From an uncultured Clostridia bacterium (GTDB lineage Bacteria; Bacillota; Clostridia; Christensenellales; UBA1242): DNA of 64,000 bases. Shown in pieces: positions 5,284 through 57,275 of the stretch. The DNA lies in the NCBI GenBank assembly GCA_944372325.1, contig CALVYR010000002.1, positions 11,729 through 75,728 on the forward strand. Reading direction: 5' to 3'. The notes beneath the pieces were generated by a model. The model was given only the letters and a program-made list of their open reading frames with translations. It did no database searches and was not told the DNA's origin. Each line of letters starts with the position of its first letter. The stretch's first letter is position 1. Both the position numbers and the translations under genes were made by a program.

Positions 5284-6467
5284 AGAAGTTGATAATTATT
5301 CTAGGTATAGTTTTTATATTTTCCTTGCCTTTGTTTAGTTATTCTGGAGTTGCATATGCAGACACTTCAGAGGAAGAACTTATAGATCAAATTGAGGAAA
5401 GCGTTAATGGTCAGCTAGAAGATCTTGACTTAAGCGGGCTTGAAAGCATTTTAAATAATTTAAACAAAGAGCAAAGTGAAATGTTTGGCTCTGGAACATT
5501 TATAGAAAAATTGCAGAGCATTTTAAGTGGAGAATTTTCAGACAATGCGGGAAGTGTTTGGGAAGCTATACTTGGACTTATTTTTGATGAACTTTTAAAT
5601 TTCTTACCACTAATTGCTACAATAATTGCTGTTGCAATACTTTCTGGTATGATTGGGGATTTAAGGGGAGCAAATTCTAAATCGATTGCAGACATAACGC
5701 ATTTTGTGTGCTATGGTGTGATAATTATTCTAGTAGTGAGTGCTTGCACGAGCATTTTAACTTTAACCTCAAACACCTTGCAGGGGCTTAAAAATCAAAT
5801 AGATGTAGCTTTTCCAATTTTGTTAACAATCTTAACTGCTATAGGTGGTACAAGTTCTGTAAGTGTATATCAACCAGCGGTAGCGCTATTTTCAGGAACT
5901 ATAATGCAGATATTTACATTAGTTCTAATGCCATTATTTATATTTTCTTTGGTGTTTACTGTAATTTCTAATCTGTCATCATCTGTAAAACTAGAAAAAT
6001 TTTCAAGTTTTTTTAATAGCCTTTTTAAATGGATAACTGGCGCGGTTTTTACAATTTTTATGGGCTTTTTAATTATTCAAGGAATAACAGCAGGGAGTTT
6101 AGATACTGTATCTATCAGAACAGCCAAATATGCTATAAGAAGCTATATTCCTATTCTTGGTGGCTATCTTTCTGAAGGTTTCAATGTTATTATGGCAAGT
6201 TCAATACTCATTAAAAATGCTATTGGTGCAAGCGGGCTTTTACTTATGTTTTCTAGTGTTATAGTCCCAGTGGTGGAAATTGTTCTTTTAATGCTATGCT
6301 TAAAATTAACTGCAGGAATTTTAGAGCCTCTTACAGATAGTAGAATTTCTAATTTTATAAGTGGAGTGGCAAAAAGTTTGATAATGCCAATTGTACTTAT
6401 AATTGGGGTGGCTTTTATGTATCTAATTTTTATGGGACTTATAATTTGTACAGGTAATTTTATATAG
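5280..6467 (+). CDS. spoIIIAE: Stage III sporulation protein AE
   Basis: 395 aa: signal peptide, acidic soluble segment, then multiple TM helices. ATGA overlap with the upstream gene. Confidence 0.8.
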   Translation: MKKLIIILGIVFIFSLPLFSYSGVAYADTSEEELIDQIEESVNGQLEDLDLSGLESILNNLNKEQSEMFGSGTFIEKLQSILSGEFSDNAGSVWEAILGLIFDELLNFLPLIATIIAVAILSGMIGDLRGANSKSIADITHFVCYGVIIILVVSACTSILTLTSNTLQGLKNQIDVAFPILLTILTAIGGTSSVSVYQPAVALFSGTIMQIFTLVLMPLFIFSLVFTVISNLSSSVKLEKFSSFFNSLFKWITGAVFTIFMGFLIIQGITAGSLDTVSIRTAKYAIRSYIPILGGYLSEGFNVIMASSILIKNAIGASGLLLMFSSVIVPVVEIVLLMLCLKLTAGILEPLTDSRISNFISGVAKSLIMPIVLIIGVAFMYLIFMGLIICTGNFI

Positions 6468-8303: not shown

Positions 8304-8696
8304 ATGCGTACAGATGCGCGCGAGTTTGCTTTTAAAATGATTTTTGAAAAACTTTTTAAAGACGGAGATGAAACTCTGTCTTTTAATGCTATAAGCGAGG
8401 ATAAAGCTTTAAATGAAGTTGATCTAAAGTTTTATGAAGAGCTTTTTAATTCTTTTAAGGAAAATCAAGATGAAATTGAGGCGATAATAAAAAGTAATTG
8501 TGAGGGCTATGATTTAGATAGAATCTATAAGGTAGATTTAGCCCTTTTATATCTTGCTGCAGTTGAACTTAAATTTATTAAAACGCCTCCTCAAGTAGTA
8601 ATAAATGAGGTTTTAAATATTTCTAAAAAATATTCTACAGACAAAAGTGGAGGTTTTATAAACGGCGTGCTTAGTAAGGTTGTAAAAGTTTTATGA
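8304..8696 (+). CDS. nusB: Transcription antitermination factor NusB
   Basis: 130 aa starting RTDAREFAFKMIFE and ending with a FINGVL motif; upstream of xseA as in other Firmicutes. Confidence 0.85.
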   Translation: MRTDAREFAFKMIFEKLFKDGDETLSFNAISEDKALNEVDLKFYEELFNSFKENQDEIEAIIKSNCEGYDLDRIYKVDLALLYLAAVELKFIKTPPQVVINEVLNISKKYSTDKSGGFINGVLSKVVKVL

Positions 8697-9805
8697 TAGA
8701 AGAAAAGGCAATTTCTGTTACGCAGATTTCAACATATTTTAAACAAATCTTTGATGCAGAGGAACTTCTTCAAAATATAAGTGTTTTTGGAGAGGTTTCT
8801 GATTTTTCTATTTCTAGAGGTATTGCTTATTTTAGCCTAAAAGATGAAAATGCACTTTTATCCTGTGTATGTTTTGATAGTAATAGTTTAAGTTCAGTTA
8901 GAAATGGTGATATGGTTATTGTTAAAGGTTCGCCTAGATATTATGTTAAGGGTGGAAGGCTTAACTTTAATGTAACTAAAATAACTCCATATGGAATGGG
9001 AAATTTATTTGAACAGTTTTTAAAACTTAAACAAACTTTAGAAGAAGAGGGCCTTTTTGATACAAAATATAAAAAGCTGATTGATCCTAAAAAAATAAAG
9101 AGGATAGGTGTAGTCACCTCGGAAACAGGAGCTGTAATACAAGATATTATCAATATCACTAAAAGAAGAAACCCAAATGTAGACATAGTTTTGTATCCTG
9201 TAAAGGTTCAAGGGGCTATGGCTGAACTTGATATTGTGAAGGGCATAAAATTTTTTTCTGATTATGATGATATAGATGTGGTTATAGTGGCTAGAGGAGG
9301 TGGTTCACTAGAAGATCTTCAACCTTTCAACACAGAAGTTGTGGCTAGGGCGGTATTTGCTTCTAATAAGCCAATTGTTTCTGCTGTTGGCCATGAAACG
9401 GACTTTACCATTATTGATTTTGTATCTGATCTAAGAGCCCCAACGCCTAGTGCTGCAGCTGAATTAGTAACTGAAAATATAATGTCTAAAAAATATAGTT
9501 TGCAGGATAAAATTTTTAGGCTTATTAGGGCTGTAGAAAATATACTTTACATTTCTAAAACTAAAATTTCGCATGATATTAAAAGCTTATATAGAATATC
9601 TGAAAGCTTTTTAAATGAAAGAGAATATATGCTATCTTTAAAACAGGCAAAGCTAACAAAACTAAGCCCACTAGAAATAATGAAGCTTGGATATGCTAAG
9701 GTTAGTAAGGGAGATAGTGTAGTAGTAAGCGTAAATGATACAGTTCAGGGTGATGAGTTAGAACTTCAGTTTATAGATGGAAAAATAAAAGTAGTAAGGA
9801 GATAA
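8693..9805 (+). CDS. xseA: Exodeoxyribonuclease VII large subunit
   Basis: 370 aa with an N-terminal OB-fold, then VARGGGSLEDL and HETDFTI motifs. Confidence 0.9.
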   Translation: MIEEKAISVTQISTYFKQIFDAEELLQNISVFGEVSDFSISRGIAYFSLKDENALLSCVCFDSNSLSSVRNGDMVIVKGSPRYYVKGGRLNFNVTKITPYGMGNLFEQFLKLKQTLEEEGLFDTKYKKLIDPKKIKRIGVVTSETGAVIQDIINITKRRNPNVDIVLYPVKVQGAMAELDIVKGIKFFSDYDDIDVVIVARGGGSLEDLQPFNTEVVARAVFASNKPIVSAVGHETDFTIIDFVSDLRAPTPSAAAELVTENIMSKKYSLQDKIFRLIRAVENILYISKTKISHDIKSLYRISESFLNEREYMLSLKQAKLTKLSPLEIMKLGYAKVSKGDSVVVSVNDTVQGDELELQFIDGKIKVVRR

Positions 9806-9810
9806 GTGTT

Positions 9811-10014
9811 ATGACATTTGAAGAGGGAAATAAGGAATTAGATGATATAATTGAAAAACTAGAAAGCGGAAAGGTTGGACTTAAAGAGGGGACAAAACTC
9901 TTTGAAAGAGGCAGTGAAATATCTGAAGCGCTATATAAAGAGTTTAATGAAAGCAAGGGTAAAATTTTTGTTATTAGAGATAACCTTGAAAAGTTAATGG
10001 GAAGTGAAGAATAA
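9811..10014 (+). CDS. xseB: Exodeoxyribonuclease VII small subunit
   Basis: 67 aa starting MTFEEGNKELDDIIEKLESG; helical hairpin protein directly after xseA. Confidence 0.9.
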   Translation: MTFEEGNKELDDIIEKLESGKVGLKEGTKLFERGSEISEALYKEFNESKGKIFVIRDNLEKLMGSEE

Positions 10015-10015
10015 T

Positions 10016-10044
10016 TTGCATTTAATTTGATAATGTGATATAAT
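10016..10044 (+). promoter_or_regulatory. SigmaA-type promoter in front of the large ncRNA
   Basis: TTGCAT (10016-10021), 17-nt spacer, extended -10 TGaTATAAT (10036-10044). Predicted start is near G10051. Confidence 0.6.
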
Positions 10045-10050
10045 ATATTT

Positions 10051-10629
10051 GCGAAGGTGTAGTATCCTAGTCGATGAACTCTACTTAGAGGGTGATGAAA
10101 CAAGCACCAAAGGGCATAACGATGAAGTTTCTGGTGTCAGTTTTGGTTGCCCAAATTGGGACTGATGCTGGGAGTTAAGATTTTTGGACGCATTGTAATG
10201 GCATACAATATCCGTTCCAATTATCGCGGAGACCCAATCAGGTGGAAAATTCCACTTCTTGGGAGAGAAACCTGCAAGGCGACGCAAAAGTTGTGTGCAG
10301 TGTAGCCTGCTTTGAGTGACATCTTAGGGATTCGGTGTTAAAGGTCTTGCTCATGTTTTTGGCCAGGCATAGCAATGACAAGCTGATGAAATTTGTGTTG
10401 CAAAACTAAGCTAAGAGTAGAGCTAGTCGTTAAGGAAAGCTTCTAGGCTATTGCAAAGGAGTTTGCAGTTATATTGGGGATTATAGTGTGATCTTAGTGG
10501 CGATTCGGTGCAAGATTCTGCGTAATAGGAAACTTCCTCGGCGGTGACGCCGGGGTTACGGAATTTGGGAAATCCAACCGAACCTATGTCGCAAGGTTTA
10601 CCTAATATAATGCCTTCGCCTATTTTTTT
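10051..10629 (+). ncRNA. ole: Large structured ncRNA, most likely OLE (ornate, large, extremophilic) RNA
   Basis: About 580 nt, ORF-free and visibly GC-enriched in an AT-rich genome, with its own promoter. 5' GCGAAGG (10051-10057) pairs with CCTTCGC (10613-10619), followed by a T-run. It lies between xseB and a 4-TM DxxxD protein, upstream of argR-recN, which is the published OLE/oapA context. No RNase P, tmRNA or SRP signatures. No covariance model was run. Confidence 0.75.
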
Positions 10630-10683
10630 AATAATTCTTTAAAAGGTTTAATATATAAAATAGTAAAAACATAAAATAGTATT

Positions 10684-11418
10684 ATGAAAAAAGATGATAA
10701 TCAAAATCAGGAGAAGAATAAAGATAAGAAGAAAGTAAAGGCGCAAGCCAAAGAGAAACCATGGTATATTTGGCCTATAAAAATTTTCTTTTTAGCTCTA
10801 GCGTTATCTTTAAGTTTTAGCATTTTAAGTGAGCTAGCTATGAGTAATGCAAGCATTATAGTTTCTATAATTGTAGTGTTAGTGTTTATATCTATTAGCG
10901 TAATAACAGACATGATAGGCGTAGCCGTAGCATCATGCACAGAAGAGCCGTTTAAAGCTATGGCCTCAAGAAGGGTTAGAGGAGCAAAAGAGGCTTTGTT
11001 TTTAGTCAAAAATGCAGATAGGGTAGCTTCACTATGTGCCGATGTGCTAGGTGATGTATGTGGAATTCTTGCAGGAGCTGGAGGTGCATCAATTCTATAT
11101 CATATAGTAACAAGTTCATCTTCTGAGGCCTTTGAAATTGTTATGGCGTCCGTTGTGTCTGCAGTTATTGCTGGACTTACAATTTTTGGAAAAGCAATTT
11201 TTAAACGATATTCCATGGAAAATTGTAATAAGGTTATATTAGCGTTAGGTAAGTGTTTGAGTATCTTTACTAGAAACAAAAAAGATAAAAAGAAAACTAA
11301 AAAAGAGGACACCTTAAAAGCTGAGGTAAAGGTAACTAAACTAGAAAACGAAAAAGAAATAGAGCCTGATTTAAAAGAGGATATAGATAATAAGGAAGAT
11401 AATAAGGTTACAGATTAA
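10684..11418 (+). CDS. oapA: OLE-associated membrane protein A-like (4 TM, DxxxD)
   Basis: 244 aa with four predicted TM helices and DVLGD (DxxxD) in the third hydrophobic segment. Lys/Glu-rich N- and C-terminal tails. Immediately downstream of the ncRNA. No obvious SD. Confidence 0.65.
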   Translation: MKKDDNQNQEKNKDKKKVKAQAKEKPWYIWPIKIFFLALALSLSFSILSELAMSNASIIVSIIVVLVFISISVITDMIGVAVASCTEEPFKAMASRRVRGAKEALFLVKNADRVASLCADVLGDVCGILAGAGGASILYHIVTSSSSEAFEIVMASVVSAVIAGLTIFGKAIFKRYSMENCNKVILALGKCLSIFTRNKKDKKKTKKEDTLKAEVKVTKLENEKEIEPDLKEDIDNKEDNKVTD

Positions 11419-11433
11419 GCTGTAATCTTTTTT
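11405..11433 (+). terminator. Intrinsic terminator after oapA
   Basis: 8-bp stem GGTTACAG/CTGTAATC (one G-U pair) spanning the stop codon, followed by TTTTTTT. Confidence 0.65.
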
Positions 11434-11502
11434 TATTGGTAAGGGAGAGTACTCCTTTTTATTAACTACAAAATGCATAAGAGTGTATTTTTATAAATAT
11501 GA

Positions 11503-11636
11503 AATGCAAAATAATTCAAAAGCTAAATTTTTATGTAAAAATGCGTGAATATTTATGCAAAAATCGCTTGCATAAATATAAATTTTAATGTATAATAATC
11601 ACACTAAAGGGAAAAATGTTTGAATTTTTATAAATT
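11503..11636 (+). promoter_or_regulatory. argR promoter with four ARG-box-like operators
   Basis: Four sites match TGAATwwwwATTCA: TGCAAAATAATTCA (11505-11518), TGAATATTTATGCA (11546-11559), TGCATAAATATAAA (11569-11582) and TGAATTTTTATAAA (11621-11634). Promoter: TTGCAT 11568-11573, 17-nt spacer, TGTATAAT 11589-11596. Confidence 0.55.
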
Positions 11637-11702: not shown

Positions 11703-12158
11703 ATGGCGCGTTCAGCTAGACAATCTAAAATACTTGAACTAATATCCACAAAGGAGATTGAAACGCAAGATGAACTTGTGGCTGCTCTAAGAGCTGCTAG
11801 TTTTGATATAACTCAAGCCACCATCTCAAGAGATATAAAAGAGCTTGGCCTCATTAAAATTTTAAGCGCTGAAACTGGCAAATACAAATACTCTATTGTG
11901 GATAATGGAGAGCAAGCAGTATCTAATAAGTACATAAATGTTTTCAAAGAGGCTGTTATATCAATTAAGACCGCGCAGAATTTATCTGTAATAAAAACTA
12001 TAAAAGGAATGGCAGGAGCAATTTGCGGACTGATTGATAAGCTAAACCTAGATGGGGTTATGGGCTCTGTATCTGGCGATGATACTGTAATGGTTATTTT
12101 ACCAGATTTAAAAATGGCACAGAATGCAACTGAAACACTTTTAAAATTATCGGTGTAA
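11703..12158 (+). CDS. argR: Arginine repressor ArgR/AhrC
   Basis: 151 aa starting RQSKILELI..QDELV..L...G..ITQATISRDIKELGL (wHTH), with C-terminal GDDTVMVI (arginine-binding core). Confidence 0.9.
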   Translation: MARSARQSKILELISTKEIETQDELVAALRAASFDITQATISRDIKELGLIKILSAETGKYKYSIVDNGEQAVSNKYINVFKEAVISIKTAQNLSVIKTIKGMAGAICGLIDKLNLDGVMGSVSGDDTVMVILPDLKMAQNATETLLKLSV

Positions 12159-12159
12159 T

Positions 12160-13857
12160 ATGATTCAAACTTTAAAGATAAAAAATGTAGCGTTAATAAA
12201 AGAATTAAGCCTTGACTTTACTCAAGGCTTTAATGTGTTGTTGGGTGAAACTGGTGCTGGTAAGAGCATTATAATTGATTCTTTAAATTTTGTACTAGGT
12301 GATAAACCATCAAAAGCTATGATAAGAACGGGTGAAGACTTTATGAAAGTTGAAGCTTCATTTGTTGAATACGGAAAGCAAACTTCAAATATCTTACAAG
12401 AATTGGGAATAGATGATGAAGGCATACTTCTATTTTCTAGATTGTTTAGTTTAGATGGAAAATCTGAATGTAGAATAAATGGTATACAATATCCATTAAA
12501 TATGCTAAAACAGATTTCTTCTACTTTAGTAGATTTCTATGGTCAACATGAAAATCAAGTGCTTCTTAGAGCTAAAAATCATTTAGCGTTATTAGAAAGC
12601 TATAAGCCTGAACTTTTTATAGAAAATAAAAAAAGCTTGTTAGAGGCTTTAAATTCTTTAAAAGAAGTTAGACAAGAAAAAGAAAGCCTTGGTGGAAATT
12701 TTGAAAATAGAGAAAGGATGATAGATTTACTTAGTTATCAAATTGCTGAAATAGAGAATGCTGGACTTAAGGAAAATGAAGATGAAGAACTAGAAAGTGA
12801 AATGAAAGCTTTTGCTGGTTCTGAAAGAATAACTGAAGCTTTGAAAACAGTTTTAGCTTCATTTGAGTCCTCAAATGGTGTGCTTTCTGGGGTAAAATCT
12901 AGTATACATAGTTTGCAAAGTATTTCAACTTACAGCACAAAATTTTCTGAGTTGGCAGAAAGGCTGAATAGCTCAATGTATGAATTAGAAGATATATTAG
13001 ATGAAGTTAAAACACTTTCAACTGAATTTATATTTGATGAAGTAAAAATGAATGCTGTAGATGAAAGGTTAGATTTAATTAAAACTTTAAAAAGAAAGTA
13101 TGGGCCAACACTTTCTGATGTTATGGGCTTTTTAGAAAAGTCAAAACTAGAACTAGATAATTTAGATGATGCAGGGGTAAAATTAAAAGAACTTACTGAA
13201 AAAGAACGAGGCTTAGAAGAGAAAGCTTTTGCTGTTTCTAAAAATCTATCTTTAAAAAGGCGAGAGTTAAGCAAAGAAGTGGAAAGCAAGATCTGTAACG
13301 AATTATCTGAGCTAGGTATGAAAAATGCCAGATTTAAGGTTTTCTTTAATGATATGCCAGAATGTTATACTCAAGATATTACTAGACAAGGCTTTGATGA
13401 TGTAGAATTCCTATTTTCCGCCAATTTAGGAGAAGATTTAAAACCTCTTTCAAAAACTATTTCGGGTGGAGAGATGAGCAGGTTTATGCTTGCAATGAAG
13501 AATATTTTAGCAGATAAAGATGGGGTTGGAACTTTAGTGTTTGATGAGGTAGACTCTGGGATTAGTGGCGTTATTGGAAACGCTGTTGCTGAAAAAATTG
13601 CAAAACTTTCGAAAAACTTTCAAGTGCTGTGTATAACTCATCTTCCTCAAGTTGCTTCCATGGCGGATAGTTATATTTATGTAACAAAAAATTCTGCAAA
13701 TAACTCTACTCAAACTAGTGTAGAAAAACTTAATGGTGAAAGAATTTTAGAGCAGATAGCTCAACTTTCAGGTGGAAATTTTAACACTGAAGCTTCAATA
13801 GCTCATGCAAGAGAACTAAAAGAAAACAGTGAAAAATTTAAAAAGAAAATTTCATAA
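12160..13857 (+). CDS. recN: DNA repair protein RecN
   Basis: 565 aa with Walker A GETGAGKS, a long coiled coil, the signature SGGEMSR and Walker B LVFDEVD. Confidence 0.9.
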   Translation: MIQTLKIKNVALIKELSLDFTQGFNVLLGETGAGKSIIIDSLNFVLGDKPSKAMIRTGEDFMKVEASFVEYGKQTSNILQELGIDDEGILLFSRLFSLDGKSECRINGIQYPLNMLKQISSTLVDFYGQHENQVLLRAKNHLALLESYKPELFIENKKSLLEALNSLKEVRQEKESLGGNFENRERMIDLLSYQIAEIENAGLKENEDEELESEMKAFAGSERITEALKTVLASFESSNGVLSGVKSSIHSLQSISTYSTKFSELAERLNSSMYELEDILDEVKTLSTEFIFDEVKMNAVDERLDLIKTLKRKYGPTLSDVMGFLEKSKLELDNLDDAGVKLKELTEKERGLEEKAFAVSKNLSLKRRELSKEVESKICNELSELGMKNARFKVFFNDMPECYTQDITRQGFDDVEFLFSANLGEDLKPLSKTISGGEMSRFMLAMKNILADKDGVGTLVFDEVDSGISGVIGNAVAEKIAKLSKNFQVLCITHLPQVASMADSYIYVTKNSANNSTQTSVEKLNGERILEQIAQLSGGNFNTEASIAHARELKENSEKFKKKIS

Positions 13858-16675: not shown

Positions 16676-17827
16676 GTGAAAAAGTTTTTGATAACTATAT
16701 GTTGTGTACTATGCATTTGCATAATACCATTAAGCGGTATTACTCAAGGAGAATTCGCAAAAGCAGATGAGGCTTATACGGCTAAGTCTATCATTTTAGT
16801 AGATTATAATTCTGGTGAGGTATTAAAGGAAGATAATGCAGATGAAAAGCTTCCAATTGCAAGTATGGTCAAGATGATGACTTTACTTCTTACCTTTGAA
16901 GAAATGGATAAGGGCAACCTAACCTTGGATACAAAAATTACTACTACTGAAAATGCTTCTGGTATGGGTGGCTCTCAAGTGTTTATAGACCCTTATGTAA
17001 CATACACTGCAGAGCAGATGATTAAAAGTGTAATAATGGCATCTGCCAATGATGCTAGTGTTGCTTTAGCAGAACATATTTCTGGCTCAGAAGATACCTT
17101 TGTAAAGAAAATGAATGAAAGAGCAAAAGCTCTTGGGATGACAAACACATTATATGCCAATTGCACAGGGCTTCCTGAGCCAGAGCAATATTCTTCAGCA
17201 AGAGATGTTTCAATATTAATGAAAGAACTTTTGAAACATGACATATATTTTAATTATAGCACAATTTGGATGGATGAACTTGTACATCCGTCTGGTAGAA
17301 AAACAGAGCTTGTAAATACAAATAAATTAACTAGGTATTATAAAGGCTGTGATGCTGGTAAAACAGGTTCTACAAGCGAGGCTGGTTATTGTTTGTGTGC
17401 ATCTGCTAAGCGCGATGATATGAGGTTAATAAGCGTAGTTATTGGGTCAAAAACAGGTCAAGACAGATTTAACGAAAGCGCTAGTTTGTTTAACTATGGT
17501 TTTGCAAACTTTGAAAATAAAAATATTATCTCTAGCACTACTCCGTTAGGGAAGATTGAAGTAAAGAGAGCAAAGATAAATGAAATCGAATATTATGCAG
17601 AAAAGCCTTTTTATGGCTTGTGTAAAAAGGGAGAAACCGATGCTTTTAAAACAGAAATTGAATTAGATGATTCTATTTCTGCGCCAATAAAGGCAGGTGA
17701 AAAGATTGGTACAATTACTGTTATAAAAGATGGGCAGGTTAAAGAAGAAATAGCTATAGTTGTAAAGGAAGATGTAAAGGTTCTATCTTATGGCGAAAGT
17801 ATTAAAAAAATAGCTTCAAACTGGTAA
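16676..17827 (+). CDS. dacF: D-alanyl-D-alanine carboxypeptidase (S11), DacF-like
   Basis: 383 aa with a signal peptide, SMVK (SxxK), SAND (SxN) and KTGST (KTG). GTG start after GAGGTGA. Follows punA as dacF does in B. subtilis. Confidence 0.6.
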   Translation: MKKFLITICCVLCICIIPLSGITQGEFAKADEAYTAKSIILVDYNSGEVLKEDNADEKLPIASMVKMMTLLLTFEEMDKGNLTLDTKITTTENASGMGGSQVFIDPYVTYTAEQMIKSVIMASANDASVALAEHISGSEDTFVKKMNERAKALGMTNTLYANCTGLPEPEQYSSARDVSILMKELLKHDIYFNYSTIWMDELVHPSGRKTELVNTNKLTRYYKGCDAGKTGSTSEAGYCLCASAKRDDMRLISVVIGSKTGQDRFNESASLFNYGFANFENKNIISSTTPLGKIEVKRAKINEIEYYAEKPFYGLCKKGETDAFKTEIELDDSISAPIKAGEKIGTITVIKDGQVKEEIAIVVKEDVKVLSYGESIKKIASNW

Positions 17828-17832
17828 AATTA

Positions 17833-17860
17833 AAGGGCAAAAAATTTGCCCTTTTTCTTT
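17833..17860 (+). terminator. Intrinsic terminator after the dacF-like gene
   Basis: AGGGCAAA/TTTGCCCT stem followed by TTTTCTTTT. Confidence 0.7.
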
Positions 17861-17932
17861 TAAATAAGGCGTTTTATTTATTGACAAAAGGAATTTTTTT
17901 GTTTTATAATAACTTCAAGGAGAAAAACTTTT

Positions 17933-18706
17933 ATGAGTCAAACATTAAAATTCTTGGGCAGAGGTTCTGCTTTTAATAAATCAGAAGTGAATAACTGTGC
18001 TTATTTCAAAAAGGGTAGTGTACTTGTTGTTATAGATTGTGGAAATGGCGTTTTAGATGCTATTAAAAGATCTGGAATTATGAAAGGGGTAAAAAAGGTT
18101 TACCAAATTGTTACTCATTTTCATGATGATCATGTAGCAGATCTTCCAGCTTTCTTTGATTATTGCAATGATGAATTAAAAATTAAACCAAACCTTTTAA
18201 ATACCATTAGTTTAGAGGGTAGTAAAGTTGAAAAACTAGGTTTAAAAGAGGGGAGAGATTTCAATTTTGTTGAACCATTATCTAAAAACTTTAAATGGGT
18301 TAATGTGCTTTTAGTTCCTCATGCAAAGAACATGGATACTATTGCTTTGGAAATAAACTTTAATAATAAAAAGATATTCTATAGTTCAGATTGTAGCAAT
18401 ATTCCTTTTGATATTCCTAACTATGATGAATATTACCTTGATTGCTCAGAGTCGGGTAATAAACTTCATATGGATATAAATAAAGTTAAGGAAATAATTA
18501 AGAAAAATAAAATAAAAAAGCAACAGGTTTTCTTAATGCATATAGAAAGCCAAAGAACGCTTGAAATAGCAAGAGAGGAAGGTCTAAAAGTTGTTGAACC
18601 AGTTGTTTCACCTGAAAGAAATAAAATTCAAAACATAAAGAAAGAACTAAAAGTAGAGCGTTCAAAAGAAATTAAAAATACTAAAGATAAGGAACAGGGA
18701 AAGTAA
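17933..18706 (+). CDS. MBL-fold metallo-hydrolase with Lys/Glu-rich C-terminal tail
   Basis: 257 aa with THFHDDH (HxHxDH). Preceded by TTGACA (17881-17886), TATAAT (17905-17910) and AAGGAGA. Confidence 0.65.
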   Translation: MSQTLKFLGRGSAFNKSEVNNCAYFKKGSVLVVIDCGNGVLDAIKRSGIMKGVKKVYQIVTHFHDDHVADLPAFFDYCNDELKIKPNLLNTISLEGSKVEKLGLKEGRDFNFVEPLSKNFKWVNVLLVPHAKNMDTIALEINFNNKKIFYSSDCSNIPFDIPNYDEYYLDCSESGNKLHMDINKVKEIIKKNKIKKQQVFLMHIESQRTLEIAREEGLKVVEPVVSPERNKIQNIKKELKVERSKEIKNTKDKEQGK

Positions 18707-18713
18707 TAAAATT

Positions 18714-18741
18714 AAAACAGGCTTTTTTATAGCCTGTTTTT
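18714..18741. terminator. Bidirectional terminator between the convergent MBL gene and lexA
   Basis: ACAGGCT/AGCCTGT stem flanked by an A-run upstream and a T-run downstream. Confidence 0.65.
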
Positions 18742-19355
18742 TAAAACTTTTTTATAACACCTATTACTTTTCCTAAAATTTCAAGCTCAAGAGTGTATAT
18801 AGGGAAGTGTAGAGGGTTTTGAGGTTGAAGCCTAAAACCATTTCTTTCTCTATAAAATTTTTTTACCGTTGTTCCGCTATCTAGCCTTGCAACAACTATA
18901 TCACCATCTTCAGCTGTATTTTGCACTTTTGCAATGATTGTATCGCCGTTGCTAATACCAGCATCTTTCATACTATCTCCAACTACTTTTAAAAGGAATA
19001 AATCTTGATCTGTTCCAAAAAAGTTTTTAGATATAGAATAAGTTTCAATTAAATTTTCTTCTGCCATTATGGGCTGACCGCCAGCAATTTTACCAAGAAG
19101 AGGAAGTCTAACCATTTCCATGCTATTTTTAAGCATCTTTGTTTCATCTACAATTTCAATAGCACGCTTTTTTAAAGGATTTTTTCTAATTAGCCCTCTG
19201 TTTATAAGTTTGTTTATATAATAATCTACCGTATTTACAGATTTTAAATCTAAATAACTTTGCATTTCTCTGTAGCTTGGAGTGTAACCATGCTGACATT
19301 GATAATTTTTTAAATAAGTTAAAAGTTTTGCAAGGTTTACTTCACTCTTTTTCAT
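18741..19355 (-). CDS. lexA: LexA repressor
   Basis: 204 aa. N-terminal wHTH (GYTPSYREMQ), S24 autopeptidase Ser (GDSM) and Lys (TVKKF). Confidence 0.9.
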   Translation of the reverse strand: MKKSEVNLAKLLTYLKNYQCQHGYTPSYREMQSYLDLKSVNTVDYYINKLINRGLIRKNPLKKRAIEIVDETKMLKNSMEMVRLPLLGKIAGGQPIMAEENLIETYSISKNFFGTDQDLFLLKVVGDSMKDAGISNGDTIIAKVQNTAEDGDIVVARLDSGTTVKKFYRERNGFRLQPQNPLHFPIYTLELEILGKVIGVIKKF

Positions 19356-19391
19356 AGGTAACTCCTTAAATTAAATTGCTCTCTTTGTTTT

Positions 19392-19431
19392 AAAATACCA
19401 TAAAATTAAATATTTGTCAAACATTTGTTTT
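19392..19431 (-). promoter_or_regulatory. lexA promoter with an overlapping degenerate SOS (Cheo-type) box
   Basis: Minus strand: TTGACA (19415-19420), 17-nt spacer, TGgTATTTT (-10 at 19392-19397). The palindrome AAAACAAATGTTTG (19418-31) has the form AAAC-N4-GTTT, against the consensus GAAC-N4-GTTC. Confidence 0.45.
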
Positions 19432-20461
19432 AATTTCTTAATTTTACAATCTCTGCTACTGAGCGTCTTTTATCTTCGCTTATGGCTGCATAATGCTTTT
19501 TGGTGGTGTTTACATCTTTGTGACCTAAAACATCTGCAACTATGTAAATATCTCCAGTTTCTCTATAAAGATTTGTACCATATGTACTTCTAAGTTTATG
19601 TGGAGATATTTTTTTAAGTGGGGTTACAGCTCGTGAATATTTTTTAACTAAATTTTCAACTGCGCGAACTGTAATTCTGCGGTTTTGAAGAGAAATAAAA
19701 AGAGCTTTTTCTTCTGGAGGTAATTTCTTTTGCTCGCGCACCTCAAGCCATTTTAAAAGCGCTTCTTTTACTTCTTCGCTAAAGTATAGGATAACTTGAT
19801 TTCCTCCTTTTCGTGTTACTTTAAAGGCGTTATTATCAAAATCGATATCCTCAACATTTAAACCTACACATTCGCTAACACGAATACCAGTGCCTAAAAA
19901 TAGTGTGAGCATTGCCACATCTCGTTCTTGGGTGTGTTTGTTAAAACCTTGTTGTTGCTTGGTTAGCAAATTTGGGTTTTCTGCTTGGTTTATAAGCTTT
20001 CCAACCTCATCAACCTCTAGCCTTAAAATATCCTTTTGATGAATTTTAGGTGTGCTTACTTTGCTGGCTACATTTGAAGAAAGTTTTTCTTTATTGAAAA
20101 GATACTTAAACAAACTCCTTATGCTAGAAAGTTTTCTTGCTTTACCTTTCTCACCATTTTTATAATTTTTCCCATTAAATGTATAATAGGAAAGGTAGCT
20201 TAGATATGAACTTATGTCATCCGCCGTCACTTTGTTTAATTGTTCGAGAGTTAATTCTTCAGGTTTACACACAAATTTAAATCTTGCTAAAAAATCAAAA
20301 AACACCCTTAAATCCATGGCATAGTTAAGCCTTGATAATGTTGATGTATAAGGTTCTAAATCTAAAAAATAATTAAAACAAAACTTAGGAAGGCTTTCCA
20401 TATACCTAGAAAGCTTTTCTATATTACTTCTATCTCTATCTTGAAAATAATTTGAACTCAT
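19430..20461 (-). CDS. Tyrosine recombinase (XerC/XerD-like integrase family)
   Basis: 343 aa. The C-terminal catalytic blocks HKLRSTYGT and LGHKDVNTTKKHY give the R-H-R-Y signature. Upstream of lexA in the same orientation. Confidence 0.75.
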   Translation of the reverse strand: MSSNYFQDRDRSNIEKLSRYMESLPKFCFNYFLDLEPYTSTLSRLNYAMDLRVFFDFLARFKFVCKPEELTLEQLNKVTADDISSYLSYLSYYTFNGKNYKNGEKGKARKLSSIRSLFKYLFNKEKLSSNVASKVSTPKIHQKDILRLEVDEVGKLINQAENPNLLTKQQQGFNKHTQERDVAMLTLFLGTGIRVSECVGLNVEDIDFDNNAFKVTRKGGNQVILYFSEEVKEALLKWLEVREQKKLPPEEKALFISLQNRRITVRAVENLVKKYSRAVTPLKKISPHKLRSTYGTNLYRETGDIYIVADVLGHKDVNTTKKHYAAISEDKRRSVAEIVKLRN

Positions 20462-20489
20462 AAATATATTTTAAACTCTTTTAAAAAAG

Positions 20490-20518
20490 TTGTCAAAAGA
20501 TTTCTGTTGTGATATATT
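20490..20518 (+). promoter_or_regulatory. SigmaA-type promoter of serS
   Basis: TTGTCA (20490-20495), 17-nt spacer, TGaTATATT (-10 at 20513-20518). Only about 30 nt of leader before AAGGAGA-ATG. Confidence 0.45.
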
Positions 20519-20551
20519 TATTTTTAATAAATTGTTTATAAAGGAGAAATT

Positions 20552-21826
20552 ATGTTAGACCTAAATTTAATTAGAGAAAACCCAAAATATGTGCATGATG
20601 CATTAAAAAAGAAAGGGTGGGATGTAGACTTTTCTAATCTTATCAAACTTATTGATACTAGAAGAGAGCTTATAGTTAAAGTAGATGCTTTAAAGAATGA
20701 GAAAAACAAGTTGTCTGCTTCCGTTCCAGTTGTAAAAAAACAAGGTGGCGATGTAAACGCTATCTTTGCTAAGGTAAAAGAATTAAATGCTGATATAGAA
20801 AAACTAGATGAGGACTTAAAAAACTGTGAAAAAGAGATAGATGATTTTGTAAGCCCACTGCCAAATATGCCAGATGAAGATTTACTTCCTGGCGAAAAGG
20901 AAAATAATAAAGTTATAAAAACTATTGGCGAAAAGCCTAAGTTTAATTTTAAACCAAAGGATCATGTTGAACTTTGTGAAAAACTAGGAATTATAGACTA
21001 TTCTCGTGCTGCTAAAATTAGTGGCAGGGGAACTTGGATATATAAGGGGTTAGGAGCAAGGTTAGAGTGGGCACTTATAAACTACTTTATATCTGAACAT
21101 TTAAAAGACGGTTATGAATTTATTTTGCCACCACATATTTTAAATTATGAATCTGGGTATGTTGCAGGGCAATTCCCTAAGTTTAAAGAAGATGTATTCT
21201 GGCTTGAAAATCAAGAGCCTAAAAAGTTTATTTTACCAACAGCCGAAACAGCTTTAGTAAATTTGCACAGAAATGAAATCTTAGAAGAGGATGAGCTTCC
21301 TAAAAAATATTTTGCTTATACTCCATGCTATAGGTGTGAAGCAGGTAGTTATAGAACAGAAGAAAGAGGAATGATAAGAGGCTATCAATTCAATAAAGTT
21401 GAAATGGTTCATTATGCTACAGAAAAGAATTCTAAGCAGAGTTTTGAAGAACTTGTAAATAAGGCAACGAGCCTAGTAGAAAAACTTGGGCTTCATTTCC
21501 AAATATCTAAACTTGCAGCTGGAGATTGTTCTCACTCTATGGCAAGAACTTATGATATTGAAGTTTGGATACCAAGCATGGAAGTTTACAAAGAAGTTTC
21601 TTCTGTAAGCAATGCTAACGACTATCAAGCTAGACGCGGTGCAATTAGATATCGTGATAAAGAAACTCATAAAACAAAATATTGCCATACTTTAAATGCT
21701 TCTGGTCTTGCTACTTCAAGGCTTTTCCCAGCCATAATAGAGCAATATCAAAATGAAGATGGAAGTGTAACAGTTCCTGAAGTGTTAGTTCCATTTATGG
21801 GTGGTATAAAAGTTATTAGACCTTAA
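20552..21826 (+). CDS. serS: Seryl-tRNA synthetase
   Basis: 424 aa with an N-terminal coiled-coil arm and a class II core (TAE..L, YRCEAGS.., NASGLATSR). Confidence 0.9.
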   Translation: MLDLNLIRENPKYVHDALKKKGWDVDFSNLIKLIDTRRELIVKVDALKNEKNKLSASVPVVKKQGGDVNAIFAKVKELNADIEKLDEDLKNCEKEIDDFVSPLPNMPDEDLLPGEKENNKVIKTIGEKPKFNFKPKDHVELCEKLGIIDYSRAAKISGRGTWIYKGLGARLEWALINYFISEHLKDGYEFILPPHILNYESGYVAGQFPKFKEDVFWLENQEPKKFILPTAETALVNLHRNEILEEDELPKKYFAYTPCYRCEAGSYRTEERGMIRGYQFNKVEMVHYATEKNSKQSFEELVNKATSLVEKLGLHFQISKLAAGDCSHSMARTYDIEVWIPSMEVYKEVSSVSNANDYQARRGAIRYRDKETHKTKYCHTLNASGLATSRLFPAIIEQYQNEDGSVTVPEVLVPFMGGIKVIRP

Positions 21827-21836
21827 AAGGAAGTAT

Positions 21837-22778
21837 ATGGGTGTTTTTGATAAGCAAACTATAATTGGTTTTACTGAGCCTATTAACTATGAGATAATAG
21901 AAGAGAATTATTCTAGATTACTAGAGATTCTCTCTTCTGTTATGTCTGACCTCAGTAAAAGAAATGCTGTAATAAACCCAGACGCAGAAGTTTTGCCAAT
22001 AAATGAATTTGCAAGTGGTGCTATAACCCCAATTTCAAATTTAGATGTATTTCTAGTAATTAAAAGCCCTCAAATAGAATTGAATACGGTAAAGATTACA
22101 AAAAACAAATTTAGGTCGTTTTGGGAGCGTTTAAAGCTTGCATGGAAAAGGTCTAGAATTAAGAAAAAAAGAAAAAGAAGAAATAAAAAATTAAACGATC
22201 AAACAACTTTGACCTCTCAAATCAAAGGGAAATATGATATAAATGATCTTTGTTTAGACCTTGTAAATAACATATCAAATTATATTACTCCATTAACAAT
22301 AGTTAGTTTAACTAATGCTATAGTAAATATAACAGGTGACGACTTTACCTTTCCTGTAAATATTTTTCCTGCAATAAAAAAGGGGAATGTCTATTCTGTA
22401 TACAATAAAATTTTAAATAAATTCTATGATTACGATTTTACACAAAGATTTGAAAACTTAAGAAGGGTAGCTTTTGGAAAAGAAGAAAAAGTTTTAAACT
22501 TAATTAAAATTTATAATATGCTCTATTTCAATTTATATAACAAACATTTATATCAACCCTTTGTTGAAAGTTTAATTTATAATCTTCCAGAAAACACTTT
22601 TGATAGTGATGATATTTATGAAATTTTTATTAGGTCTATAAACTTTTTAAATAATGCTCGATGGCAAGATTGTGTATCTATTTTAGATAACACATTGCCA
22701 ATGTTTAAAGATCAAAGATTAAACATGAATTTATATGAAACTTTAGATTTTATAAAGAATGTTAAAAATAATTTATAG
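21837..22778 (+). CDS. Hypothetical protein, degenerate Pol-beta/CD-NTase-like nucleotidyltransferase fold with poly-basic insert
   Basis: 313 aa. ASGAITPISNLDVFLVI resembles hG[GS]x9-13DhDh with the first Asp replaced by Asn. FPVNIFPAI resembles the hDhhPa strand with Asp replaced by Asn. Insert WKRSRIKKKRKRRNKK. C-terminal helical region follows. 10-nt and 9-nt gaps to serS and cmk. Confidence 0.35.
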   Translation: MGVFDKQTIIGFTEPINYEIIEENYSRLLEILSSVMSDLSKRNAVINPDAEVLPINEFASGAITPISNLDVFLVIKSPQIELNTVKITKNKFRSFWERLKLAWKRSRIKKKRKRRNKKLNDQTTLTSQIKGKYDINDLCLDLVNNISNYITPLTIVSLTNAIVNITGDDFTFPVNIFPAIKKGNVYSVYNKILNKFYDYDFTQRFENLRRVAFGKEEKVLNLIKIYNMLYFNLYNKHLYQPFVESLIYNLPENTFDSDDIYEIFIRSINFLNNARWQDCVSILDNTLPMFKDQRLNMNLYETLDFIKNVKNNL

Positions 22779-28810: not shown

Positions 28811-29839
28811 CTAAAATTTGAAATTTAAATGGATGTAACCATCCATATTGTAAGAAAGGTTTTTGTCTATAATTTTCTCGGCTATTTTACAGCATTCAGA
28901 CATCCTTGTTCCTTTAAAAAGTGGATCAATATATCTAACTTTTGCACCATGATGAACGAAGTAAACATCTTTTGGTTCAGTTTTAGAAATAAATATTTTT
29001 TTTGCATTTTTCCAAGTTTTGAAAACATCTTTATATTTAGAATTCTCAATTATTTTAATAACTTCTGTTTCTTTCAGATGATATAAATCCTCAATTGAAA
29101 TTACTTTTTCTTCATTGAGCTTTTTTAATATGTCTGCTAAAAATTGCATGGAAAATCTAGTTCTATTTTCACGATAAATTATTGATAGCTGACTTGTAAG
29201 CTTAACAAAAGTTCTTGCAATTTTTTTAGTTTTAAAGCCTAGTTCAATTTCATTTTCTTCGTTTAGTTCTATCTCTATATCATTATATATTTCTTTAATT
29301 TCATCTAAGGTTCTTAGCCTATAAGTAAATAGGGCATTAGAAAGAGAATATTCCAGCCTATCAGAAGATAATTTAGGTGTATCATTGTCTGCAATAGGGT
29401 AGAGATGATAGTTATCTACCTCAAGAATTTGAATATTATCTCTTTTTAATAGAGCCATAATTTCTGGAGAATTCTTTAAAATTTTTGTTGTTAAATCTTC
29501 TGTGCTTTCTTGGGTCATATAATCGCCATTTAAAAAGTCTATACAATGCTTAAATGCTGGCGTTGCTATATCATGAAAAAGCCCAGAAAGCGTTTGTTTT
29601 TTATCATGAGTAAAGTGCCAAATTATTAAAGCAACAGCCACTGAATGGTCTAAACTTGAAAAGAAAAATTTACTTTCAAATAGTGTGGAGTATATTGTTC
29701 CGCAGGTTACGCTAATATTTTTTTGAAATAGTAACTCCTTTGTGTCTATGTATTCATTAAGCCAATCAGGGAAGTCTGGTTCTAAAACCTTAAAATAATC
29801 TTTTATTTCATTATCTAAGCTTTGGTAATATTTACTCAT
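28811..29839 (-). CDS. HD-domain phosphohydrolase (SAMHD1/dGTPase-like motif set)
   Basis: 342 aa. LDHSVAVA .. LFHDIATPAFKH .. SSDRLEYS matches the H..HD..PFxH..DRLDY pattern of COG1078-type HD hydrolases. Confidence 0.55.
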   Translation of the reverse strand: MSKYYQSLDNEIKDYFKVLEPDFPDWLNEYIDTKELLFQKNISVTCGTIYSTLFESKFFFSSLDHSVAVALIIWHFTHDKKQTLSGLFHDIATPAFKHCIDFLNGDYMTQESTEDLTTKILKNSPEIMALLKRDNIQILEVDNYHLYPIADNDTPKLSSDRLEYSLSNALFTYRLRTLDEIKEIYNDIEIELNEENEIELGFKTKKIARTFVKLTSQLSIIYRENRTRFSMQFLADILKKLNEEKVISIEDLYHLKETEVIKIIENSKYKDVFKTWKNAKKIFISKTEPKDVYFVHHGAKVRYIDPLFKGTRMSECCKIAEKIIDKNLSYNMDGYIHLNFKF

Positions 29840-29957: not shown

Positions 29958-30033
29958 TGGAGCTACTGGCGGGACTCGAACCCGCGACCTGCTGATTACG
30001 AATCAGCTGCTCTACCAACTGAGCCACAGTAGC
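29958..30033 (-). tRNA. tRNA-Thr (anticodon CGU)
   Basis: The 76-nt reverse complement folds as a perfect cloverleaf: GCTACTG-TG-GCTC-AGTTGGTA-GAGC-A-GCTGA-TTCGTAA-TCAGC-AGGTC-GCGGG-TTCGAGT-CCCGC-CAGTAGC-T-CCA. Encoded CCA; anticodon loop U-U-CGU-A-A. Confidence 0.95.
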
Positions 30034-32197: not shown

Positions 32198-32261
32198 GTA
32201 CTATGCAAATTTTTTAAGTACTATGCAAATGCTTGACTATAAGATTTTTTTTTGCTATTAT
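32198..32261 (+). promoter_or_regulatory. Promoter of the PadR-like gene, preceded by a tandem 13-nt repeat
   Basis: GTACTATGCAAAT occurs at 32198-32210 and 32218-32230 (20-nt period), abutting TTGACT (32233-32238), a 17-nt spacer and TATTAT (32256-32261). Confidence 0.5.
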
Positions 32262-32351
32262 CTTTTTAGAGTTAAAAATCTTTGTTTAAACAGTTTTTTA
32301 AAAATTTTTATATATAACTCTTCATCAAATTTTATTAGGAAAAGGTTTTGT

Positions 32352-55518: not shown

Positions 55519-57275
<1,757 letters not shown>

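Follow-up and report, generated by a model that had tools for sequence, protein, structure and literature searches.

The 64,000-nucleotide stretch of DNA that was analysed (hereafter, the window) comes from an uncultured gut Clostridia bacterium and carries a genuine pair of ole and oapA of an already described kind. Coordinates are those of the window, and all features lie on the forward strand unless stated otherwise. Upstream of the pair are nusB (8304–8696, Pfam NusB), xseA (8693–9805, Exonuc_VII_L), and xseB (9811–10014, Exonuc_VII_S), and downstream are argR (11703–12158) and recN (12160–13857), both also assigned by Pfam. The xseB stop at 10014 is separated from the next credible coding start, at 10684, by 669 nt, and the RNA accounts for approximately 567–595 nt of this gap. 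The preliminary description of this DNA had placed about 580 nt without a credible ORF after xseB. The absence of a credible ORF is confirmed; the figure, however, corresponds to the RNA rather than to the gap. Only short ORFs of 47–68 aa are found there, and a coding reading was rejected in view of the RNA-type covariation across the region. The G+C content reaches 0.41–0.45 over 10000–10600, compared with approximately 0.26–0.35 in the flanks and 0.317 in the whole window, so the GC enrichment noted earlier is real.

The non-coding region is an OLE RNA, as had been proposed. The Rfam covariance model RF01071 matches it with 358.5 bits and an E-value of 1.1e-101 over model positions 1–616 of 616, without truncation; the gathering threshold of the family is 50 bits, and the score is thus about seven times the threshold. 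The match extends from 10038 to 10632 and includes flanking nucleotides, and the RNA itself, counted from its predicted start to the last nucleotide of P1, spans 10051–10617 (about 567 nt). When the Rfam consensus pairs are mapped onto the locus RNA, 135 of 148 (91%) are canonical. The molecule is closed by the terminal helix P1, in which GAAGGU at 10053–10058 pairs with GCCUUC at 10612–10617. The additional P1 pair 10059/10611 was dropped from the structure, as it clashes with the last P12 pair of the Rfam consensus. A second long-range helix, formed by the UAG..CCUAG strand at 10060–10070 and its partner at 10443–10450 (CUAGGCUA), encloses P4a to P10. The P4a hairpin (10091–10108, GGUGAU-GAAACA-AGCACC) is recognized by the covariance model and the alignment and departs from the consensus GGCGGG-CCUAAAAAU-CCGCC, with another loop and a stem that is two pairs shorter. 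In the cryo-EM work of Kretsch 2025, P4a is the proposed docking site of OapA.

P4a is followed by the J4a/5 strand CGAUGAAG at 10120–10127, which is assigned to a k-turn according to Lyon 2022 and Kretsch 2025, and by the long P5/P5.1 hairpin (10128–10174), a covariance-model match with 20 bp and a GCCCA loop. In H. halodurans, this k-turn, defined in the same two studies, and the P5 region constitute the binding region of OapC (YbxF). Judged by sequence, the nucleotides of a putative OapC site are present, with the J4a/5 strand complemented by GGAGAC at 10227–10232 (J6/7), and none of the 39 aligned sequences deviates from the core nucleotides U-GAAG and GGAGAC. P6 (10179–10225) has an internal loop and a conserved AAUGGCAU loop region. 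P7 (10233–10263) has only 31 nt, with 13 consensus positions deleted, and no sequence in the aligned set has a shorter P7 than the locus RNA and its closest relatives. P8 (10272–10300) is a full-length hairpin of 29 nt, and its helix is 92.8% paired across the 39 sequences. The P9 to P9.3 arm (10309–10411) also has its full length of about 100 nt and ends in a loop with the palindrome GGCC (10361–10364), a candidate kissing loop for dimerization. Among relatives, this tetranucleotide alternates between GGCC, GCGC, GUAC, and GAUC, all of which are palindromes. The palindromic P9.3 loop is the dimer kissing loop (bridge B3) of the cryo-EM structure, and the switching of palindromes has been described (Kretsch 2025).

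The 3′ domain (10468–10611) comprises P12, P12.1, P12.2, P14, and P14.1, as indicated by the covariance-model match and by pairing in the alignment. P12 (10468–10478 with 10601–10611) closes this domain separately, and P12.1 (10487–10491 with 10589–10593), P12.2 (10504–10509 with 10577–10582), and P14 (10513–10520 with 10559–10566) follow inside it. P14.1 (10535–10543 with 10548–10556) is capped by a GUGA tetraloop at 10544–10547. This loop fits the GNRA pattern, and the preceding G, the first loop G, the last loop A, and the closing C are invariant in 39/39 sequences.

The fold is well supported by the comparison of related RNAs. The 39 OLE sequences give 6036 pair cells, of which 86.3% hold standard pairs, compared with 41–43% in slid controls, and none of 500 shuffles reached this value. 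Compensatory change on both sides is seen at 119 of the 162 pairs. P1 is paired in 100% of the cells and 5 of its 6 pairs change on both sides, with forms such as GAAGG/CCUUC, GGUGG/CCACC, and GACGG/CCGUC among relatives; the long-range closing helix suggested earlier from this one sequence is therefore upheld. The second long-range helix is likewise 100% paired and has two covarying positions, with C-G replaced by U-A in 3 sequences and U-A by C-G in 14. Helix lengths and motif conservation were taken from a MAFFT alignment of the 39 sequences, and a measurement based on anchor motifs, in which several sequences were misplaced, was set aside.

The gene oapA (10684–11418) starts 67 nt after P1 and encodes a protein of 244 aa. 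The product is a typical OapA with a predicted CNNM/CorB-like fold. The four transmembrane segments and the DVLGD motif claimed in the preliminary description are borne out, with hydrophobic 19-mers at residues 34–52, 56–74, 114–132, and 150–168 and the motif at residues 120–124. The positions D120, G123, and D124 are invariant in 30 homologues, which share the motif DVxGD. In the AlphaFold2 model, the helices coincide with the four hydrophobic segments and the core has a pLDDT of 80–93; the tails have low confidence. The only Pfam family matched is CNNM (PF01595), with 21.5 bits, which is below the cut-off of 28.4. NCBIfam holds no OapA model and returned a lone chance-level match to a five-transmembrane family. 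Since a sequence search of the PDB gave nothing meaningful (SepL, E 0.24), a fold comparison was used instead. The top five PDB matches of the AlphaFold2 model in Foldseek were MtCorB (7M1T/7M1U) and CorC (7CFG/7CFF), with probabilities of 0.82–1.00 and E-values from 5e-3 to 0.4; the CorB matches are weak by E-value (5e-3, TM 0.45). The published OapA of H. halodurans behaves in the same way: it has four transmembrane helices, DxxxD in helix 3, a sub-threshold Pfam CNNM match, and MtCorB and CorC as its best structural matches. Unlike the CNNM/CorB/MpfA Mg2+ transporters, the present OapA has no cytosolic CBS or CorC_HlyC domains and carries low-complexity tails rich in Lys, Glu, Asp, and Asn, the length of which varies among relatives. 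Here, the N-terminal tail has 26 aa and the C-terminal tail 49 aa, both rich in Lys, Glu, and Asp. The Lys/Glu-rich tails pointed out earlier are thus present, but they are not distinctive, as low-complexity tails of variable length are common on OapA relatives.

A near-consensus extended −10 promoter had also been claimed, and it is indeed found in front of the RNA. The sigma-70-type promoter at 10015–10044 consists of a −35 element TTTGCA (10015–10020), an 18-nt spacer, and the extended −10 element TGaTATAAT (10036–10044), with 10 of 12 consensus matches and the TG extension. Most of 31 relatives have an equivalent TGnTATAAT box, placed 6–9 nt ahead of P1. This fixed distance agrees with the proximal promoter that was demonstrated experimentally in B. 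halodurans, where 5′ ends map to the start of P1 (Wallace 2012, PMC3413148). Transcription would accordingly be expected to start near 10051, 2 nt before P1. A tract of seven U (10622–10628) lies 4 nt past the end of P1 and may act as a partial stop; it is kept in some relatives (L009, L010, L013, and L018) and absent in others (L004 and L005). At the other end, a hairpin of 10 pairs followed by a T run (11404–11438) overlaps the oapA stop codon. It resembles a terminator by consensus match only, and it is likely to mark the end of an ole-oapA transcript.

In its general organization, the RNA resembles the full-length OLE RNAs (RF01071; H. halodurans and C. acetobutylicum). The order of P1, the long-range 5′ helix, P4a, the k-turn, P5–P12, P14/P14.1, and P15 is the same, and the invariant nucleotides, the palindromic P9.3 loop, the proximal promoter at P1, and oapA immediately downstream are shared. 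It differs from them in three respects, which are its sole structural departures from the OLE consensus: P13 is lost, P7 is 13 nt shorter, and P4a is remodelled as described above. The loss of P13 was not among the points of the preliminary description. At the P13 site (10510–10512), the nucleotides GCA join P12.2 directly to P14; the covariance-model alignment makes a local end that skips 21 model positions and inserts 2 nt. The hairpin with its GNRA loop and bulge is therefore missing, and the four-way junction has become a three-way junction. The corresponding alignment columns (543–563) are empty in 22 of the 39 sequences, including the locus RNA, and hold a GNRA-capped hairpin in the other 17. 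The remodelled P4a occurs in the same 22 sequences that lack P13, and the alignment shows that an OLE RNA can do without P13 and the canonical P4a loop at the same time. The P13 hairpin is thus a mark of the full-length form and not of the OLE family.

P13 is the primary, high-affinity site of OapB (Yang 2021), and OLE variants without the OapB site, together with clades lacking OapB, have already been published (PMC11332333). In particular, variant 1 is described as having a shorter P7, P8, and P9 than full-length OLE and as lacking the OapB-binding nucleotides of P13, and it is commonest in the TANB77 clade (Fernando and Breaker 2024, PMC11332333). The locus RNA resembles variant 1 in the missing P13 nucleotides, the short P7, and the low-GC uncultured gut Clostridia host. 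It appears to differ in P8 (29 nt) and the P9 arm (about 100 nt), which match in length those of Caldicoprobacter and other OLEs that contain P13. The host also differs from the clade given there as typical, as it lies near Ca. Caccopulliclostridium in the GTDB order 4C28d-15, family UBA1242. Membership in TANB77 was considered and rejected, since the closest genome with a name is placed in 4C28d-15/UBA1242.

Taken together, the interval 10015–11438 is best explained as an ole-oapA transcription unit, in which a promoter-driven RNA with the canonical OLE fold and its OapA partner form a reduced particle without P13. We give this joint explanation a probability of roughly 0.93. By analogy with the systems studied so far, it could work as follows. 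The strong housekeeping-type promoter would start transcription about 2 nt before P1, and the transcript of about 567 nt would adopt the canonical OLE fold, with P1 closing the molecule, the second helix enclosing P4a–P10, and P12 closing the 3′ domain. Two OLE RNAs may dimerize, among other contacts, through the GGCC loop of P9.3, as in H. halodurans and C. acetobutylicum. The RNA pair would dock on OapA dimers. OapA, a CNNM-like membrane protein with four helices, is the product of the very next gene, and read-through transcripts probably serve for its translation. Such a membrane-bound particle might help the cell under stress, such as that from Mg2+, alcohol, cold, or poor carbon sources. 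In this lineage, the particle would be reduced, and OapB would either not be needed or have only the weaker GNRA loop of P14.1 to bind.

The role of OapB is the point at which another mechanism for the same RNA competes most seriously. OapB might still be a regular partner that binds through the invariant P14.1 tetraloop, and the particle would then not be reduced at all. The GUGA loop has the GNRA form with its key positions unchanged in every aligned sequence, and P14.1 is a weak secondary OapB site in H. halodurans (Yang 2021). Since this loop is kept and invariant, independence from OapB is not proven. Nevertheless, high-affinity binding in H. halodurans depends on the loop and bulge of P13 together with the backbone of P12.2 (Yang 2021), and OapB and OapC are largely missing from the clades whose OLE is trimmed (PMC11332333). 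Moreover, no OapB or L7Ae-family gene is found in the 64 kb, where it should be kept in mind that such genes are normally unlinked to ole. We regard the retention of OapB as a minority reading, unlikely and yet to be taken seriously. A still more tentative proposal is that the trimmed form of the 22 sequences, with P13 deleted, P7 short, P4a remodelled, and P8/P9 intact, is a distinct subtype apart from variants 1 and 2, in which OapA reads the altered P4a and the particle works with OapA alone, perhaps together with ArgR. If this doubtful suggestion were true, sister genomes that have oapA in the compact locus and no adjacent ole (e.g., L023) would be natural experiments on RNA-free OapA.

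Two further readings concern the nature of the region itself. The approximately 670 nt could be merely a long, structured 5′ leader of oapA that acts in cis, without a free-standing RNA. In the window, no separate terminator hairpin divides OLE from oapA, co-transcription of the pair is probable, and oapA has no obvious promoter of its own and no Shine–Dalgarno sequence before its start codon at 10684. Set against this, the whole OLE architecture is conserved with covariation, clear hairpin terminators separate OLE from oapA in five relatives (L007, L011, L012, L019, and L054), and the two are 2–5 kb apart in four others (L026, L039, L074, and L077). In B. halodurans, OLE is a single, stable, and abundant RNA (PMC3413148). 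A mere leader is, for these reasons, highly improbable. Equally remote is the idea of a decaying OLE remnant in a reduced genome: the deleted P13 and truncated P7 could be seen as steps to gene loss, and in some related genomes (L023, L008, and others) no OLE accompanies the oapA homologue, but the great majority of mapped pairs are canonical, the score far exceeds the family threshold, the promoter, k-turn core, P9.3 palindrome, and P14.1 GNRA loop are intact, and compensatory change continues among the 22 sequences, drawn from different species-level genomes, that retain the trimmed form, a within-clade covariation that already suggests purifying selection on it.

The transcription unit, read as an OLE RNA with its OapA partner, also lies in the expected surroundings. 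The gene order by Pfam is asp23-nusB-xseA-xseB-OLE-oapA-argR-recN-spoIVB, in accordance with the OLE-type neighbourhood recognized in the preliminary description (xseA/xseB upstream; oapA, argR, and recN downstream). OLE is located directly upstream of an OapA homologue in approximately 70 of 83 loci. As no text listing of the neighbour genes of ole was found in the literature, the extended order was read directly from Caldicoprobacter oshimai (L065), where it runs nusB, a TsaD-like gene, folD, xseA, xseB, ispA, DUF212, OLE, oapA, dxs, tlyA, nadK, argR, and recN. Both clusters lie on one strand, with nusB, xseA, and xseB upstream and oapA, argR, and recN downstream. Unlike that of C. oshimai, the compact cluster contains no folD, ispA, DUF212, dxs, tlyA, or nadK, nor do these occur elsewhere in the 64 kb, and its direct neighbours are the spoIIIA operon, asp23, and spoIVB. 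None of ispA, dxs, tlyA, nadK, and folD occurs in the window, and no Pfam match to polyprenyl synthase, DXP synthase, FtsJ/TlyA, or NAD kinase was obtained among the 66 annotated ORFs. The window has 67 ORFs of at least 70 aa; 61 were scanned with Pfam, five (16676–21826) were covered by the Pfam annotation of the matching contig L001, and the one outside this set, of 110 aa, lies on the minus strand over xseB and OLE. The absence of ispA, dxs, tlyA, and nadK stated earlier is therefore confirmed, and none of the inserts of the C. oshimai cluster is present. The arrangement is not special to the window, however, because it recurs in related gut metagenome-assembled genomes, at least nine of them at species level, which lie near Ca. 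Caccopulliclostridium (GTDB family UBA1242); the compact order is thus a trait of the lineage.

The locus is of a known kind, can be found with standard tools, and adds little beyond the published OLE types. A survey across GTDB has listed 2,822 Bacillota genomes that carry OLE and includes trimmed variants lacking the OapB site. Nevertheless, OLE is among the largest bacterial non-coding RNAs of still-unknown biochemical function, so each well-defined representative has some comparative value. In the present locus, ole and oapA make up a compact unit of about 1.4 kb that is self-contained, including a promoter and a terminator-like hairpin of its own. In this arrangement, argR now directly adjoins oapA. 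Two ARG-box sites lie upstream of argR; over the whole window, 8 such sites were counted against 3.9 ± 2.5 expected, which is not significant. The comparison of loci also points to related genomes having oapA without an adjacent ole, among them L023, in which the compact locus is kept.

The 669 nt that separate the xseB stop codon (10014) from the next credible coding sequence (start at 10684) contain only ORFs of 47–68 aa. Every element of the preliminary description, which had given this gap as about 580 nt with no credible ORF, is in place. It had also noted the GC enrichment of this gap, and the G+C content is indeed 0.41–0.45 over 10000–10600, compared with approximately 0.26–0.35 in the flanks and 0.317 in the whole window. 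The proposal that the gap encodes an OLE RNA came with a covariance-model search as its check, and the outcome is decisive. The Rfam model RF01071 matches 10038–10632 on the plus strand over 616 of 616 model positions, with 358.5 bits (gathering score 50) and an E-value of 1.1e-101. After the Rfam consensus structure is mapped onto the window, 135 of the 148 pairs are canonical. The OLE reading is supported, and the locus is a standard, tool-detectable member of the known class with a typical OapA.

The conservation of the fold was assessed with related loci; a single scan for OapA homologues in 185,579 species-representative genomes supplied them. With nhmmer, OLE was detected next to the OapA homologue at about 70 of the 83 loci, and 39 OLE RNAs chosen from such loci were aligned. 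When the Rfam pairs are counted together with two added long-range helices, standard pairs occupy 86.3% of 6036 cells; shifting the 3' partners by 1–3 columns lowers the value to 41–43%. Changes on both sides occur at 119 of 162 pairs, and none of 500 shuffles reached any of the observed measures.

The helices, all on the plus strand, take their names from published work on B. halodurans and C. acetobutylicum. The long-range closing helix noticed earlier is P1 (10053–10058 with 10612–10617), which closes the whole molecule and is paired in all 39 sequences, with five of its six pairs covarying (GAAGG/CCUUC, GGUGG/CCACC, GACGG/CCGUC). A second long-range helix (10060–10062 and 10066–10070 with 10443–10450) encloses P4a to P10; it is 100% paired and has two covarying positions. 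Inside it lie P4a (10091–10108), the k-turn strand CGAUGAAG (10120–10127), P5/5.1 (10128–10174), P6 (10179–10225), P7 (10233–10263), P8 (10272–10300), and the P9 to P9.3 arm (10309–10411). P10 and P11 are located between this arm and the 3' domain, P12/12.1/12.2/14/14.1 (10468–10611). Neither the k-turn core nor the P14.1 GNRA loop (GUGA, 10544–10547) varies in any of the 39 sequences. The P9.3 loop holds GGCC at 10361–10364, and this tetranucleotide alternates among the palindromes GGCC, GCGC, GUAC, and GAUC in the relatives. Kretsch et al. relied on this kind of palindrome switching to argue that the OLE dimer forms an intermolecular kissing loop.

The RNA departs from the consensus at three helices. 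The P13 hairpin is absent: the covariance-model match leaves out 21 consensus positions where P13 would stand between P12.2 and P14, and these two helices are joined by GCA alone (10510–10512). In the alignment, the P13 block is empty in the window and 21 relatives, and the other 17 RNAs carry a GNRA-capped hairpin. OapB binds with high affinity to P13 of B. halodurans, a hairpin with a GNRA loop and a bulge (Yang 2021). P4a, the proposed OapA docking site in the cryo-EM work (Kretsch 2025), is two pairs shorter than the consensus (GGUG-AUGAAACAAG-CACC versus GGCGGG-CCUAAAAAU-CCGCC). The remodelled form, with a GAAAYAAG-like loop in place of the consensus loop CCUAAAAAU, occurs in all 22 P13-less sequences and in no others (alignment columns 44–63), which suggests that the two changes arose together. 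P7 is 13 nt below the consensus length and among the shortest of the set. Fernando and Breaker (2024, PMC11332333) describe a "variant 1" OLE with shortened P7–P9, often without the P13 OapB site, reported in many clades and commonest in TANB77, in organisms that largely lack OapB and OapC. The window RNA fits that account in part, as the P13 site is missing and P7 is short, but P8 and P9 have their usual lengths. It probably belongs to an already-described trimmed type. The remaining novelty is whether P13 loss with P4a remodelling constitutes a subtype of its own, together with the meaning of oapA loci without ole.

Such loci are represented by seven species-level genomes (L023, L008, L036, L057, L059, L063, and L072), in which no OLE was detected within 3.5–6 kb on the upstream side of the DxxxD OapA homologue, either at the Rfam gathering threshold or with an nhmmer profile built from the 39 OLEs. 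L023 retains the rest of the compact locus (xseB-oapA-argR-recN-spoIVB). Its xseB and oapA are only about 130 nt apart (5872–6000 of that locus); both a promoter-like box and a terminator-like hairpin lie in this gap, which looks as if ole had been excised.

The near-consensus extended -10 promoter reported before the RNA was recovered at 10015–10044 (TTTGCA, 18 nt, TGaTATAAT). Transcription is predicted to start near 10051, 6 nt beyond the end of the -10 box and 2 nt before P1. Nearly all of 31 relatives have a -35-like box and TGnTATAAT 6–9 nt upstream of P1, although their upstream sequences are otherwise unrelated. This placement agrees with B. halodurans, where a proximal promoter of ole was shown experimentally, with 5' ends at the start of P1 (Wallace 2012, PMC3413148). 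A U7 tract follows P1 (10622–10628), no separate terminator hairpin occurs between the RNA and oapA in the window, and a terminator-like hairpin follows oapA (11404–11429). From these signals, we infer a single ole-oapA transcription unit with a possible partial stop after the RNA. Such a unit might be read as the RNA being a mere oapA leader, but this is disfavoured because in some relatives a hairpin terminator, or a distance of kilobases, lies between the two genes. In L026, L039, L074, L077, and L014, a distance of 0.8–4.7 kb separates oapA from the OLE upstream of it; therefore, both genes can be uncoupled. In the window, the oapA ATG (10684) has no Shine-Dalgarno sequence ahead of it (region 10660–10686), and the 25 nt before it are only A/T-rich. 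The closest relatives, L004 and L005, likewise lack one, and L007, L009, and L013 have AGGA or GGAG.

The protein encoded downstream has 244 aa, four hydrophobic segments, and DVLGD at residues 120–124, which bears out the description of a four-TM DxxxD protein. A large protein collection yielded 252 relatives at E ≤ 1e-3, none with a functional name. Among 30 aligned relatives, D120, G123, and D124 of the DxxxD motif never vary, nor does the D-M-x-G part of the TDMIGVA stretch. The only Pfam match is CNNM, which is sub-threshold (21.5 bits versus a cut-off of 28.4). The AlphaFold2 model has a mean pLDDT of 72 (core 80–93, tails below 50), and its five best PDB matches are MtCorB (7M1T, 7M1U) and the CorC transmembrane domain (7CFG, 7CFF); the same structural result, including 7M1U, has been published for H. 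halodurans OapA. The Lys/Glu-rich tails singled out earlier are present (26 aa and 49 aa; low-complexity, low-confidence, and also rich in Asp and Asn). They are not special to this copy because tails in the 30-sequence alignment range from absent to longer than the window's.

Pfam confirmed the expected neighbourhood, in the order Asp23, NusB, XseA, XseB, gap, ORF, ArgR, RecN, SpoIVB. Three ENA metagenome contigs carry the exact OapA sequence in an identical gene order. Among named genomes, the closest is Ca. Caccopulliclostridium gallistercoris, with 85% OapA identity, placed by its describers in GTDB order 4C28d-15, family UBA1242, with the genus under Clostridia incertae sedis in the NCBI taxonomy. 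On this basis, the host is an uncultured, low-GC, spore-forming gut Clostridia bacterium. The compaction of the cluster is real, but it is a lineage trait rather than one of the window alone, since tblastn with the window proteins found spoIIIAH-asp23-nusB-xseA-xseB-OLE-oapA-argR-recN-spoIVB-pnp in related genomes (L004–L006, L009, L010, and L013) and the downstream half in L007, L008, and L019. In Oscillospiraceae, Caldicoprobacter, Thermoclostridium, and others, xseB-OLE is about 1 kb longer and oapA-argR about 3.5 kb longer. Caldicoprobacter oshimai, unlike the window, has ispA and DUF212 in the former slot, dxs, tlyA, and nadK in the latter, and a TsaD-like gene and folD between nusB and xseA. 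The window has 67 ORFs of at least 70 aa; 61 were Pfam-scanned and five (16676–21826) were covered by a precomputed table of the matching metagenome contig, L001. None of these insert families occurs among the 66 ORFs, in line with the reported absence of ispA, dxs, tlyA, and nadK.

In the best-supported account, the sequence shows an RNA with its own strong promoter that folds into the OLE architecture closed by P1. By extension from other species, it may then form dimers through its conserved loops, that of P9.3 with GGCC among them, and dock on the CNNM-like membrane protein OapA, itself a dimer and encoded next door. The membrane-bound particle may aid stress adaptation, a role of the OLE particle shown genetically in H. 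halodurans. The sequence shows that this lineage has discarded the high-affinity OapB site along with P13. This probably leaves a simpler particle made up of OapA, perhaps OapC at the intact k-turn, and perhaps ArgR, a partner according to unpublished work of the Breaker laboratory.

The 285-nt oapA-argR gap contains two ARG-box-like AT-rich palindromes, TGCAAAATAATTCA (11505–11518) and TGAATATTTATGCA (11546–11559), adjoined by a promoter-like TTGCAT...TGTATAAT before argR, which suggests ArgR autoregulation. The pattern occurs eight times in the whole window against 3.9 ± 2.5 expected, which is not significant. A metallo-beta-lactamase-fold protein (17933–18706) matches Pfam Anti-Pycsar_Apyc1 and adjoins a LexA-like repressor (18741–19355, minus strand) and a tyrosine recombinase (19430–20461, minus strand), an arrangement shared by contigs L001 and L002; these genes may be ordinary housekeeping ones (RNase Z-like enzyme, LexA, XerC/D). 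Five ORFs of 191–444 aa have no Pfam match at 1e-4 (44727–45302, 52895–54229, 56625–57275) or 0.01 (21837–22778, 28811–29839). In a 640-aa protein (32223–34145), Pfam sees only an N-terminal PadR domain (residues 58–131), and the other ~500 residues are without a match. No T-box or ribosomal-protein leader reaches the Rfam gathering score in the window, despite the presence of serS, proS, pheST, and infC-rplT. The sole Rfam match besides OLE in the 64 kb is a tRNA (29961–30033, minus strand), whose anticodon loop, read by eye, is UUCGUAA (CGU, Thr).
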